Below the pieces are notes generated by a model. That model was given only the letters and a program-made list of their open reading frames with translations, was not told the DNA's origin and did not search any database. DNA of 4,403 nt from a virus (Duplodnaviria > Heunggongvirae > Uroviricota > Caudoviricetes). Positions 1 through 4,403 of the stretch are shown here, in pieces. How positions within the stretch are numbered: position 1 is the first letter of the stretch; each line of letters begins with the position of its first letter. Where the stretch lies: the IMG/VR virus record IMGVR_UViG_2675903481_000013, one strand, 5' to 3'. A program made the position numbers and the translations under genes.

Positions 1-649
1 GTGCCGTGTTCGGGTAGCACTGTTTCACATCGATGATTTCGGTGTATGACGACCAGAGCGTTTTGTTCTGCAGCTGGTCTGTGGTGCTGTCCGGTGTCAT
101 CCTGCGCATCCGGATATTGAACGGGCGCGGAGGCAGATTATCCACCACCACCGAGGCCAGATACTGCGAGGTGGTTTTGCCCTTAATGGTGATGTCTTTT
201 TCCGTCACCCAGCCACCGTTACGTTGTATCTGAACCAGCAGGCGAACTTCCGACGGATTCCGGTCCCCCTTTGAAGTGGTTTCCACCAGAGCCTGCACAC
301 CGAAGGTAAAGCGCAGACGGTCGATGTTTGCAGACGTGATGGTCCGGGTGATCGGCGTGTCATATTTCACTTCCGTACCCAGCACCGTCTCGGATCCGGA
401 GGATTCAAAACCCTCCGGCGGTGTCTGCTCCTGCTCACCTGCCCGGAACACCACCGTGACACCGGCGATGTTGGTATTCCCTTCACTGTCCAGCACCGGC
501 GTACTGTTCAGCAGCACGCTTTTTAATCCATCCACCGGACCTTCTATCGGTCCTTCGCTGATGGCATCGATCACACTCAGTAACTGCGTGGATTTCAGGT
601 TGTCCTTCGCTTCGCGCGGGGTATGCCCCTTACTGCTGCCTTTACCCAT
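1..649 (-). CDS. J: Tail tip / central tail fiber protein J, N-terminal part only (5' partial in window; gene continues beyond position 1)
   Basis: Hand translation of the minus strand from ATG at 649..647 gives MGKGSSKGHTPREAKDNLKSTQLLSVIDAISEGPIEG..., matching the N-terminus of lambda gpJ as I recall it. GGAG lies 8 nt upstream of the ATG (minus strand, plus coordinates ~658..661). No complete minus-strand ORF is listed in 1..700 by the track, consistent with an open frame running off the window edge. Gene order after I agrees with lambda. Confidence 0.9.
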   Translation of the reverse strand, partial: MGKGSSKGHTPREAKDNLKSTQLLSVIDAISEGPIEGPVDGLKSVLLNSTPVLDSEGNTNIAGVTVVFRAGEQEQTPPEGFESSGSETVLGTEVKYDTPITRTITSANIDRLRFTFGVQALVETTSKGDRNPSEVRLLVQIQRNGGWVTEKDITIKGKTTSQYLASVVVDNLPPRPFNIRMRRMTPDSTTDQLQNKTLWSSYTEIIDVKQCYPNTA

Positions 650-671
650 TCGTCATGCTCCATAAACGACA

Positions 672-691
672 AAACCGCCCGCAGGCGGTTT
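672..691 (-). terminator. Candidate GC-rich stem-loop in the I-J intergenic spacer (8 bp stem, 4 nt loop); possible RNA stability or attenuation element, function unproven
   Basis: Plus strand 672..691 is aaaccgcc-cgca-ggcggttt, a perfect 8 bp inverted repeat. On the transcribed (minus) strand it is followed by TTTTGTCGTTTAT, then the J RBS and ATG. It lies between the I stop (710..712) and J start (649). Confidence 0.2.
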
Positions 692-709
692 CACATAAAA
701 CATTTTGCA

Positions 710-1357
710 TCAGCGACCAATCACCACAACCTGACCACCATCCCCTTCGTCTGCCGTGCTGATCTCCTGAGAAACCACCCGCGACCCCACACGCATTTCA
801 CCGTACAGAACAGGCAGAACATTGCCCTGAGCAACCATGTTATCCAGTGAGGAAAAATAGGTGTTCTGTTTGCCGTTATCTGTACTGGCTGCCGTGGACG
901 TCCTGGCTTTCGGTGCCAGCATCTGCGCCACACCGCCCAGGATCATACTGGCCCCTGCCGCATACATGCCCGATACAGCCGCGGCACCCAGCCAGCCCAC
1001 AGGGTTCCACCATGCCACCGCAATCAACGCCGCCCCCAGCACCACCTGAAATACACCGCCACTTTTAGCTCCCGCCAGACGCGGCACGATATGGATCACG
1101 GCACCATTTGCCAGCGGCTCATTAAGACGGGCAGATAATTCGGTTTCACCTGCATCACGCCCGGCAATGCGCACCTGATACCAGCCGTCATTCAGTTTCT
1201 GACGAAACGCCGGGAGCTGTGTGGCCAGCGCCCGGATGGCTTCGGCCCCCGTTTTCACACGAAGGTCGATGCGGCGACCAAATCGTTGCAAATCCCCGTA
1301 AAGGCAGATGCGTGCCATGCCCGGTGACGCCAGAGGGAGTGTGTGCGTCGCTGCCAT
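710..1357 (-). CDS. I: Tail tip assembly protein I (N-terminal ubiquitin-like beta-grasp domain ending in Gly-Gly, followed by a hydrophobic Gly/Ala-rich segment and a conserved C-terminus)
   Basis: ORF of 215 aa, MAATHTLPLASPGMARICLYGDLQRFGRRIDLRVKTGAEAIRALATQLPAFRQKL...GEMRVGSRVVSQEISTADEGDGGQVVVIGR. Both termini match lambda gpI as recalled (about 223 aa) while the middle is divergent. GAGG lies about 11 nt upstream of the ATG at 1357. An alternative internal start exists at Met14 (1318). Confidence 0.88.
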   Translation of the reverse strand: MAATHTLPLASPGMARICLYGDLQRFGRRIDLRVKTGAEAIRALATQLPAFRQKLNDGWYQVRIAGRDAGETELSARLNEPLANGAVIHIVPRLAGAKSGGVFQVVLGAALIAVAWWNPVGWLGAAAVSGMYAAGASMILGGVAQMLAPKARTSTAASTDNGKQNTYFSSLDNMVAQGNVLPVLYGEMRVGSRVVSQEISTADEGDGGQVVVIGR

Positions 1358-1998
1358 TTGTCGGTATACCTCTCTCGTTTGCTCAGTTGTTCAGGAATAT
1401 GGTGCAGCAGCTCGCCGTCACCACAGTAAATGGCGGCATGATTCGGCACCGATGAACCAAAACAGCACAGCAGCACATCGCCCGGCTGCGCCGCTGACAA
1501 CGGCACCTGATACAGCCCTGTGGCCTCCAGATTATCCAGATAGAGATTCTGACCGTGACGCCACCAGTCATCCCCGCGATGAAAATCCGGCATCTCAATC
1601 CCCGCCAGATGATAAGCATCCCGGAACAGCGTGTAACAGTCCGTCACCCCGTGCTCAAAGCGCCGCCCGGTAAGATGCGGCACACAGCGGAATTTATGAA
1701 TCTCACCCCGGCAGACCAGCCACCACAGCAAATCACTCTGCACCTGCAGCCGCCGGTCGGCCTCACTCAGCCAGGGCAGACCACCGGGGTGGCTGTGGAC
1801 CAGCGCCACAATCTCACCCTGCATCTCTGCCCGCAGCCAGTCCTCCGGCGACATCCGGAAATACGCCTCCGGCTCACCGGAGATATTCACGCAGGGAAAA
1901 TATCTTTCCCCCTCCGGCGTTCTCACCACGAAGCCGCACGACTCCGCTGGCGCACATCGCCGGGCGTGCGCCAGAATCGCTGATTCTGTCTGTGTCAT
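1255..1998 (-). CDS. K: Tail tip assembly protein K: N-terminal JAB/MPN (JAMM) metalloprotease-like domain plus C-terminal NlpC/P60 (C40) cysteine peptidase-like domain
   Basis: Translation from ATG at 1998 gives MTQTESAILAHARRCAPAESCGFVV... (247 aa), matching lambda gpK as recalled. JAMM motif HSHPGG(x5)SEAD verified at 1756..1797; NlpC/P60-type Cys in GVTDCYTLF at 1636..1638. Start is 4 nt downstream of the L stop, which fits the operon spacing; the track ORF extends 25 codons further upstream (to 2073) but that would overlap L. An in-frame alternative start at Met49 (1854) would give a 199 aa product. Confidence 0.85.
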   Translation of the reverse strand: MTQTESAILAHARRCAPAESCGFVVRTPEGERYFPCVNISGEPEAYFRMSPEDWLRAEMQGEIVALVHSHPGGLPWLSEADRRLQVQSDLLWWLVCRGEIHKFRCVPHLTGRRFEHGVTDCYTLFRDAYHLAGIEMPDFHRGDDWWRHGQNLYLDNLEATGLYQVPLSAAQPGDVLLCCFGSSVPNHAAIYCGDGELLHHIPEQLSKRERYTDKWQRRTHSLWRHRAWHASAFTGICNDLVAASTFV

Positions 1999-2002
1999 GG
2001 GA

Positions 2003-2701
2003 TTACTGCGAAAGTTTGTTAATGGAAAGGAAGCCGCCAAAGTTGCCGACGTTATTGCGAAACTTACAACCACTCAGGCATTTGCTGCATTTATCCTTCG
2101 TGATATCGGACGTCGGCTGGTCATATTCATCCGCGACAGCCGGACCGTGATAACCGCACTCATCACCGCGATAGGTCCAGGTGCAGGTATTAGCCAGCAT
2201 GATGCGCCCCGGAAAAACAGCACCGTCCGTTTCCGTCGGCGTGGACAGTACAAAAGAGGCACTGACCGCGCTCAGTTCGCTGCACTGCTCGATGCGCCAG
2301 CGGCTGATCACCTCCTGCTCCGGATCGGCGTCACTGTTTCCGTTGACGAAGTTCACCGCATCCAGAAAACGGGCGTAAACCTTACGCCTGACCACCGTTC
2401 CGCCGACCAGACTCTGCAGGTCTTCCGCCATCCCGGTGACCATTCCGTGCAGGTTAGAAACCGTCAGTGTCGGACGGGCAGCACTGCCCTTGCCGTTCAG
2501 TTCAAATCCCGTCCCCTGAATGGGGTATGCCTGATACTGCCGCCCCTGCCAGGTAACCGGCTCACCTTTTTCGTTCTGCTCATTACAGAAAAAATAACGT
2601 TCACCACCGACCTCTGTCAGATCGATTTCCCAGAGCACCGCCTGGGCTGACTGAGTGAGGCGTGTCGTCTCATGATGTGTTTCCTGTGGAATATCCTGCA
2701 T
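2003..2701 (-). CDS. L: Tail tip assembly protein L (C-terminal Cys cluster consistent with the [4Fe-4S]-binding domain described for lambda gpL)
   Basis: ORF of 232 aa, MQDIPQETHHETTRLTQSAQAVLWEIDLTEVGGERYFFCNEQNEKGEPVTWQGRQYQ...CSKCLSGCKFRNNVGNFGGFLSINKLSQ, near-identical in length and sequence to lambda gpL as recalled. A strong Shine-Dalgarno AGGAGG (plus 2707..2712) lies 5 nt upstream of the ATG. Confidence 0.93.
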   Translation of the reverse strand: MQDIPQETHHETTRLTQSAQAVLWEIDLTEVGGERYFFCNEQNEKGEPVTWQGRQYQAYPIQGTGFELNGKGSAARPTLTVSNLHGMVTGMAEDLQSLVGGTVVRRKVYARFLDAVNFVNGNSDADPEQEVISRWRIEQCSELSAVSASFVLSTPTETDGAVFPGRIMLANTCTWTYRGDECGYHGPAVADEYDQPTSDITKDKCSKCLSGCKFRNNVGNFGGFLSINKLSQ

Positions 2702-2706
2702 CAGAG

Positions 2707-2712
2707 CCTCCT
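2707..2712 (-). promoter_or_regulatory. Shine-Dalgarno (AGGAGG) for L, overlapping the M stop codon
   Basis: Minus strand reads TAGGAGGCTCTGATG: the M stop TAG (2711..2713) overlaps the first bases of AGGAGG, with 5 nt spacing to the L ATG (2701..2699). Confidence 0.7.
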
Positions 2713-3040
2713 ATGCCACGACCTGTTCAAAATCTGCCGTTATGGTTACCCACAACGCCCCCACGCTTGCCGACCATTTACGACAAACCACCCTGATCGG
2801 CTTCCAGTCATAAGGTGGCGTCCACTGAAATGCGCGGACGCCACCGTGCCGTTCCAGAAAGGATTTTAAAGATGGGTGTTCACATTTACGAACACGTATC
2901 GTCACGCTGTAAGTCGACAACTGGTTATTCAGTCCCGCCGCACGACGCTGTTCATAACCATCGCCCAGCTTCACTGTCACCACTTTCGGCTCTGATACCA
3001 CATTCATATCCGGGCGCACTTTCCAGTGAAACGTCTCCAT
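2711..3040 (-). CDS. M: Tail tip assembly / minor tail protein M
   Basis: ORF of 109 aa, METFHWKVRPDMNVVSEPKVVTVKLGDGYEQRRAAGLNNQLSTYSVTIRV...WTPPYDWKPIRVVCRKWSASVGALWVTITADFEQVVA, same length as lambda gpM and clearly similar to it as recalled (GDGY, TYSV, WTPPY, EFEQVV blocks). The ATG at 3040..3038 overlaps the H stop by 1 nt (TAATG). GGAG lies about 10 nt upstream. Confidence 0.93.
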   Translation of the reverse strand: METFHWKVRPDMNVVSEPKVVTVKLGDGYEQRRAAGLNNQLSTYSVTIRVRKCEHPSLKSFLERHGGVRAFQWTPPYDWKPIRVVCRKWSASVGALWVTITADFEQVVA

Positions 3041-4403
3041 TACCGATATGCTCCACTTAACCGACCACCATCACGGGCCTGCTGTTGCATAAAGTCCGCT
3101 GCCGCTTTTTTCCCAAGGTCATAAACCACCTTCAGGGCAGCAGGACCTATCTGCCCGTTCGTGCCATCGTTATTGATCTCGATGTTGTACTGCGGGGCAA
3201 ACATCGCCATACCTGAACCACCAATATCCGCCACAACCCCCAGCTTACCGTCAGCACCACGACGCAGTGGCAGAATGGCTTCAGGTCCAGCTTCCCCCAT
3301 CACACCCGCGCCTTTTGCAAAAGCAAAAAACGTCGGACGGTTAACCACCGTGCCACTGTAGCGACTCAAATCAGCCGACTGATAAACACCGCCATCAGCA
3401 TTGGCTACAAAATCAAAAGGCAGCGCGGAAGCAATGCCTTTTACCGCTNNNNNNNNNNATTCTCAGTGACATTCTGGAGTGCACGCAGGACTCCGTTTTT
3501 CCAATTACCCTGAGCAATTTCAAGCCGTTGCCAGTAACGGCGATTCTCATTCAGTTGTCGGTTCAGACTCTCCGTCAGCGCCTGCTCGGCCTTTCTGTAG
3601 TCATCCGTGTTATATGTCCCTTTCTGCTCACTATCCCGCCTCAACTGCTCCAGCTGTTGCTGGTATTTCTGGCGAAGACTCAGTTGTACCTGATATCGCT
3701 GCCGCTGCTGATCACCCATACCCACCGTGGCGATATCCAGGTCATGTTGCTGACGCTGAGCGCGCTCTTCTTCAGCCAGTTGACTGGTCAGCTGAATTGT
3801 TTTTTTCTTCAGATCGTTGAGTGCCGTCTGTTTCTGAAGCTCCTGCTGTTTTACATCCAGCAGCGTCAGTGCCTGAATCAGTTCATCTTTACGGGCCAGC
3901 ACACTCTTTTCATCTGCCGTCAGTTTTTTCCCGTCCAGATCGCTGATGCGCTGCTGCAGAGCCAGAAGCTGTTTATGCGCTTCTGTCATCTTTTCAGTGG
4001 CAATGCCTGCTGACTGTCTTGCAGCAGCAATCTGTCCTTCCACCTGTGCCTGTTGCTGACTGTACTGCAGCAATAACCGGGTGGCCTCATCATTACGGGT
4101 TTCGCGTGTTTTTTTCTTACCGGATGCCAGGGCTTTCTCGTAACGTTCATTTTCACGTTGTATCGCCGCATCCCTGACAGCCTGATCGGCGTACTGCATG
4201 GCATTAATACGCGCAATTTCACGCTGATGTCGTGCAGCTTCCGTTTCATTCATCCGGTTCAGTGCAGCATTTTCAGCATTACGGCGTTTCTGTTGCTCCT
4301 GATAATTCCGCTCTGCCTGCTCTTTTGCATCCTGCAAATCCTTCTGGCGTTTTTTCTCCTGAAGATCGTTAAGACGCTGCTGATCGTATTCAACCTGAGA
4401 AGA
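3040..4403 (-). CDS. H: Tail tape measure protein H, 3' portion (5' end beyond window; interrupted by an assembly gap at 3449..3458 with a frame change across the gap)
   Basis: Two open minus-strand segments. 3459..4403 is open to the window edge and encodes a Q/E/K/R-rich coiled-coil segment (...LTADEKSVLARKDELIQAL...RLEIAQGNWKNGVLRALQNVTEN) resembling the central region of lambda gpH as recalled. 3040..3448 is open from the gap to the stop and encodes ...YNIEINNDGTNGQIGPAALKVVYDLGKKAAADFMQQQARDGGRLSGAYR*, matching the lambda gpH C-terminus as recalled. The two segments are in different frames (plus-coordinate codon phase 0 vs 1), so the N run does not preserve true length. The 3369 and 4337 ORF starts in the track are in-frame TTG codons, not real starts. 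Confidence 0.85.
3449..3458. other. Assembly gap (run of 10 N) inside the tape-measure gene
   Basis: Ten consecutive n characters; the flanking coding frames differ, indicating a placeholder gap of unknown true length. Confidence 0.98.

Follow-up and report, generated by a model that had tools for sequence, protein, structure and literature searches.

The lambda tape-measure gene and its closest relatives

In phage lambda, the length of the tape-measure protein gpH sets the length of the tail. The lambda protein (NP_040595.1, 853 aa) is encoded in a module with the gene order G-T-H-M-L-K-I-J, which is shared by the locus described here, and a homologous chain H is present in the solved lambda tail structures (PDB 8IYK, 8IYL and 8K35). 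Links of the lambda tape-measure protein with ManYZ and with the SNIPE defence have been described (bioRxiv 10.1101/2025.11.03.685801), and a membrane-spanning segment is weakly predicted at gpH residues 691-712, near the unmapped gpH*/gpHC cleavage boundary (PMC12617516). Much closer relatives of the locus are found among Escherichia coli prophages and phages. The H fragments, M, L, K, I and the start of J in the window (the whole stretch of 4403 nt analysed in this work) are all base-identical to a prophage of E. coli KGu016, whose H gene (NZ_CP091704.1, 4678448-4681504) encodes WP_001596840.1, and the sole difference between that prophage and the window is that 167 nt are replaced in the latter by 10 Ns. 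The phages PhiR55_1 and PhiR40_1 follow with 99.5-99.6% DNA identity to H. Its identity to WP_001596840.1 places the gene among the lambdoid tape-measure genes already catalogued, as an H gene of the gpH family.

Compared with lambda gpH, the H protein reconstructed by restoring the 167 nt is 165 residues longer and has an additional TMP_4 match, with about 26% identity overall. Both proteins contain TMP_2 (PF06791) and Tape_meas_lam_C (PF09718), and their extreme C-termini are near-identical. Tape_meas_lam_C is detected at residues 811-885 of the reconstructed H (E = 3.6e-23), of which the window alone keeps about the first 17 and the last 3 matched positions; in the reference protein, which is identical, TMP_2 spans residues 228-426 (E = 3.2e-49), a region that lies outside the window. 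A Gly/Ala-rich stretch of lambda gpH (about residues 700-745) is mostly missing from the reconstructed H. As annotated in KGu016, O177:H21, PhiR55_1 and lambda, H sits between the G/T chaperone genes and M-L-K-I-J.

The window corresponds to a lambda-type tail module on the minus strand that runs from H through M, L, K and I to the start of J. It begins within H, the 5' 1536 nt of which fall outside. Genes were assigned from the list of open reading frames and from exact identity (100%) to RefSeq-annotated prophages, and the features are as follows.

4403..3040, minus strand: H, 3' two-thirds, split by Ns (open frames and identity to RefSeq-annotated prophages)
3459..4403, minus strand: upstream fragment of H, codons 513-827 of 1018, coiled-coil body including the TMP_4 region
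3449..3458, no strand: 10-N run, read as the placeholder of a scaffold gap
3040..3448, minus strand: downstream fragment of H, beginning with the last base of codon 883 and including the stop codon, with a short hydrophobic linker and the conserved C-terminus (INNDGTNGQIGPAALK...)
3391..3524, minus strand: visible part of a mosaic (allele-variable) patch of about 300 nt in H, with the gap in its centre
3459..3503, minus strand: left contig end, 45 nt exactly common with allele B; first distinguishing SNP at 3504
3404..3448, minus strand: right contig end, 45 nt exactly common with allele B; first distinguishing SNP at 3403
2711..3040, minus strand: M, tail tip assembly gene (WP_001596839.1)
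2003..2701, minus strand: L, minor tail protein gene (WP_001152341.1)
1255..1998, minus strand: K, C40 family peptidase gene (WP_031935383.1)
710..1357, minus strand: I, tail assembly gene (WP_000741576.1), overlapping the end of K as in lambda
1..649, minus strand: 5' part (649 nt) of J, tail tip / host specificity gene

A placeholder of 10 Ns stands for 167 nt

The window contains a single run of Ns, exactly 10 long, at positions 3449-3458, which falls within the interval 3441-3470 where the original prediction had placed a scaffold gap inside the tape-measure gene together with a break of the reading frame. Since the run is a deliberate placeholder, a chance test is inapplicable to it. Upstream of the run in the direction of the gene, the minus strand is open for 315 stop-free codons from 4403 to 3459 (translation ending ...LRALQNVTEN), and downstream of it for 135 codons and a stop from 3447 to 3040 (translation starting AVKGIASALPF...). 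When the 10 Ns are kept, these two H frames are not in phase with each other: reading on through the gap from the upstream side gives XXXX, an arginine and then TAA at 3441-3443, and the downstream frame extended upstream of the gap runs into many stops. Both the gap and the break of frame were thus found where they had been expected.

The size of the missing segment was obtained from finished relatives. The window was compared in full, by megablast, with 5,426 complete E. coli genomes, which revealed at least seven chromosomes that match both flanks at 100% and colinearly, each over a span of 4560 nt, that is, 4403 - 10 + 167. In KGu016 (NZ_CP091704.1) a base-by-base check showed the flanks of 945 nt and 3448 nt to be exact substrings of the chromosome with 167 nt between them, and the identical 167 nt are also present in strain O177:H21; on the gene strand they read GCGGATAACACAGCC...GCTTTAATGAA. 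The same spacing was obtained from 57 independent metagenome and IMG/VR contigs collected by means of the 40-nt right flank of the window, 53 of which carry the left-flank 30-mer exactly 167 nt from the right-flank 40-mer. Three further contigs have a left-flank 30-mer that is off by a SNP and a gap sequence differing at 0-4 bases, and the remaining one (L015) is a divergent mosaic. Ns at the gap site were found in none of the 57 contigs carrying the right-flank 40-mer.

With a spacing of 167 nt, both flanks fall in a single frame, and the RefSeq CDS at this place is intact (3057 nt, 1018 aa, WP_001596840.1). The gap opens on a codon boundary, before codon 828, and closes within codon 883, so that the hidden segment comprises codons 828-882 and the first two bases of codon 883 (55 2/3 codons). 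The original prediction had stated that the missing sequence is in reality not 10 nt long, which agrees with the chromosomes and contigs above, and had estimated the loss at tens to over a hundred codons, of which the tens of codons are borne out. It had also proposed aligning both flanks to one intact homologous tape-measure gene, and had regarded an insert restoring a single frame as the mark of a trivial gap; both flanks are contiguous in KGu016 around the 167-nt insert and in one frame, so that, as far as finished relatives can tell, the gap is a trivial one.

The alignments strongly favour an assembly artefact: with high confidence, the 10-N run may be taken as a draft-assembly placeholder in a prophage H gene, set between two contigs in the correct order and orientation, with 167 nt missing. 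Two contigs of one lambda-like E. coli prophage would have been joined, and an N run of fixed or minimum size would have been written over the 167 nt. Ten Ns is a common minimum gap size in assembler and archive conventions, for which literature searches found no citable statement. The situation resembles that of short-read scaffold placeholders in general, in which the number of Ns is unrelated to the real distance and the flanks are colinear in finished genomes. Since refilling the 167 nt gives a single intact frame, the H frameshift is, on the evidence of these alignments, a placeholder artefact and no biological frameshift. This matters for the use of the record, as a draft annotation would make H a pseudogene or two fragments and a tail length based on gene length would be wrong, whereas the restored H is intact. 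For the source genome itself, we infer the content of the gap from the identical relatives; scans of viral, genome and metagenome collections with a pattern spanning the gap and with a 40-nt flank pattern yielded no record that contains the N-run.

It may be asked whether the source genome truly differs behind the Ns, by a deletion, an insertion (of an IS element, for instance) or a frameshifted H pseudogene. H genes that are interrupted or carry internal deletions do occur in public assemblies (L066-L068) and the gap lies within the most variable patch of H, both of which would be in keeping with a real variant. However, all called bases of the window (4393/4393) are identical to complete genomes with an intact H, the 167-nt flank spacing holds in every contig with a matched left-flank 30-mer (53 of the 57), and an IS insertion would leave abutting flanks and a target duplication, not the loss of 167 reference bases. 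A real variant at this site is consequently regarded as very improbable.

A chimeric join, in which the 5' part of H would come from one prophage and the 3' part of H with M-L-K-I-J from a co-resident prophage, had also been put forward. Near-identical lambdoid tail modules do co-occur within single genomes, many genomes have 2-7 matching places, and an exact block shared at the gap is precisely where a mis-join could occur. Nevertheless, a single haplotype, uninterrupted in at least seven complete chromosomes, matches both flanks at 100%, and the bases specific to this haplotype (allele A) are found on the left flank (3504, 3506, 3526, 3567) as well as on the right (3403, 3142). A join of allele A to allele B should show mismatches, of which there are none. 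Moreover, K-I-J, which is divergent in other prophages such as that of O177:H21, is identical to the same seven genomes. With allele-specific SNPs of a single haplotype on both sides, a chimeric origin is now very unlikely.

The hidden segment encodes the core of Tape_meas_lam_C

The 167 nt encode ADNTAGTVEQLFTSAFSSMSDWLATFCTTGKLNFKSFTSSVLSDMSRIMAQIALM(K), and the 56 hidden residues are ADNTAGTVEQLFTSAFSSMSDWLATFCTTGKLNFKSFTSSVLSDMSRIMAQIALMK. Taken alone, these residues match positions 18-72 of the 76 positions of Pfam PF09718 (E = 5e-19), and they align with about residues 644-699 of lambda gpH. Gly and Ala together make up 14% of them, Ser and Thr 29%, and their hydropathy on the Kyte-Doolittle scale averages 0.24. 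The lambda Gly/Ala-rich stretch, with 52% Gly+Ala, aligns downstream of the gap, and its counterpart in this protein is short (AVKGIASALPFDF...), lies within the right flank and leaves a 21-residue gap in the alignment. A local hydrophobic peak is centred on residues 884-889, only the first few residues of which are inside the gap. The proposal that the gap had removed a Gly/Ala-rich hydrophobic segment is not supported by these data, as the hidden piece is a Ser/Thr-rich stretch that forms the core of Tape_meas_lam_C.

A mosaic patch around the gap

The gap lies in a mosaic patch of about 300 nt (window positions ~3391-3524 plus the gap; ~3880-4170 in L003), which covers the Tape_meas_lam_C core and the linker that follows. 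Within the patch, identity to the mEp460 and phi458 alleles is 45-78%, with indels of 9 and 18 nt; the flanks are at least 97% identical. Likewise, 1146 E. coli records match the 167-nt segment at only 80-90% identity, and 1745 E. coli records match a 1404-nt query around the gap at 95-99%. Tentatively, and with more doubt than confidence, this pattern might indicate a genuine hot spot of exchange or diversification between the lambdoid prophages of E. coli, in an H gene otherwise at least 97% identical, and the patch might in that case be the likely reason for the gap. Its position is just ahead of the proposed gpH*/gpHC boundary. If the hot spot were real, the patch could reflect selection on the passage of the tape measure across the inner membrane, including dependence on ManYZ and recognition by defences that bind the tape measure, such as SNIPE; the evidence here consists of the mosaic pattern, and such a reading in terms of selection and function is speculative.

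Possible cause of the gap

Direct or inverted repeats touching the 167-nt segment were not found, nor were hairpins at the site, and the GC content at the gap site is 45-52%, with no extreme. An explanation by some intrinsic property of the locus was therefore rejected. An allele family here called B accounts for 14 of the 55 usable public alleles; these depart from the window at 3504 and 3403 and match it at every base between these two positions. Counted from the gap on the gene strand, the SNPs stand at -45 and +213. The block common to the window allele and allele B is accordingly of 45 + 167 + 45 = 257 nt and reaches equally far on both sides of the gap. When a 167-nt gap is placed at random, only 0.9% of the placements leave overhangs of equal length (20-127 nt) with any allele.

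In a de Bruijn graph of two haplotypes that share an exact block, the unique contigs run k (or k-1) bases past the last SNP. We infer the presence of a second H allele in the sequenced sample because the 45-nt overhangs are symmetric, as such a graph with a shared block gives. This second allele, from another lambdoid prophage or from a co-occurring strain, would be identical to that of the window across the 257-nt block centred on the gap; with a de Bruijn assembler at k of about 45-46, each unique contig would end 45 nt into the shared block, the collapsed repeat node would be dropped, and read pairs would bridge the two contigs. The gap was thus probably caused by a 257-nt block shared with a second H allele and collapsed in de Bruijn assembly, and coexisting near-identical lambdoid tail modules probably explain why there is a gap at all. 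If so, the symmetry of contig ends with respect to the SNPs of a second allele can expose a collapsed repeat, and the k of the assembler, without the reads.

That several near-identical lambdoid tail modules may reside in one genome, as had been pointed out in the original prediction, is illustrated by E. coli 204446 (NZ_CP025910.1; L064, L065). This strain carries two prophages that are 98.9% identical from H to I (61 mismatches in 5387 nt) and whose tail modules share an 815-nt exact block across the gap site, a type of repeat at which short-read assemblies break. Most of the complete genomes that are identical to the window carry H once; in C25 and MS20653 there is a second copy. Neither C25 nor MS20653 is among the best 60 listed matches of allele B, and co-residence of the window allele with allele B was found in none of the genomes checked. 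Two further points count against the proposed cause. To our knowledge, a k of 45 or 46 is the default of none of the most common assemblers, and a paired-end gap estimate of about 167 nt is usually written as about 167 Ns, not as 10.

The same trivial gap could have arisen from locally low read coverage or quality, with no repeat shared with a second allele. The single H copy of most window-identical complete genomes, and the failure to find allele B co-resident in such genomes among its best 60 listed matches, would both be compatible with low coverage. The site, however, has a GC content of 45-52% and no hairpins or repeats, and on this reading one would have to regard the equal 45-nt overhangs shared with a common allele as coincidental, at a probability of about 0.009. 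Low coverage is for these reasons a possible but less likely explanation, and the collapse of a block shared with a second H allele is still the preferred one. A simple bubble against the mEp460 or phi458 alleles was also considered and rejected: the contig ends extend about 70-80 nt into allele-specific sequence, and for mEp460 the longest shared stretch inside the gap is of about 49 nt.

Additional observations on H and the tail module

H genes that are broken without Ns were noted in three other public assemblies (L066, 9118-10330; L067, 7035-10330; L068, 7266-10330). They were retrieved with the 109-aa ORF that gene calling would produce downstream of the gap, and none is the source of the window. 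In GCA_037104945.1 the H locus is only about 1.2 kb long, with ORFs of 276 aa and 109 aa, which implies a large internal deletion, and H is interrupted in CP028772.1 and SRR29354241. An unannotated piece of 238 nt, 97.9% identical to H, is present in the T4-like Aeromonas phage AP1 (MT713136.1, 251326-251563; L069, 2928-3165), within the last ~6 kb of the record and amid tRNAs and tiny hypothetical ORFs, and it looks foreign or like a contaminant.

The prophage of O177:H21 (L001) is 100% identical to the window across H, M and L, after which a 1-nt indel occurs in the L-K spacer (window position ~2002); its K-I-J region (window positions 1-1998) has 67 mismatches and 98% identity, a pattern that resembles a recombination junction at the L/K boundary. 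The overlap between K and I is of 103 nt (1255-1357) and is annotated likewise in lambda and in RefSeq, and the PhiR55_1 record places the start of I 99 nt later, so that start-codon annotation differs among records. Finally, the 60-nt spacer between I and J contains, at ~664-691 on the minus strand, a GC-rich hairpin followed by a run of Ts (AAACCGCCTGCGGGCGGTTTTGTC). A simple terminator scan did not flag this hairpin; the hairpin and T-run are conserved base for base in comparison with phage lambda.
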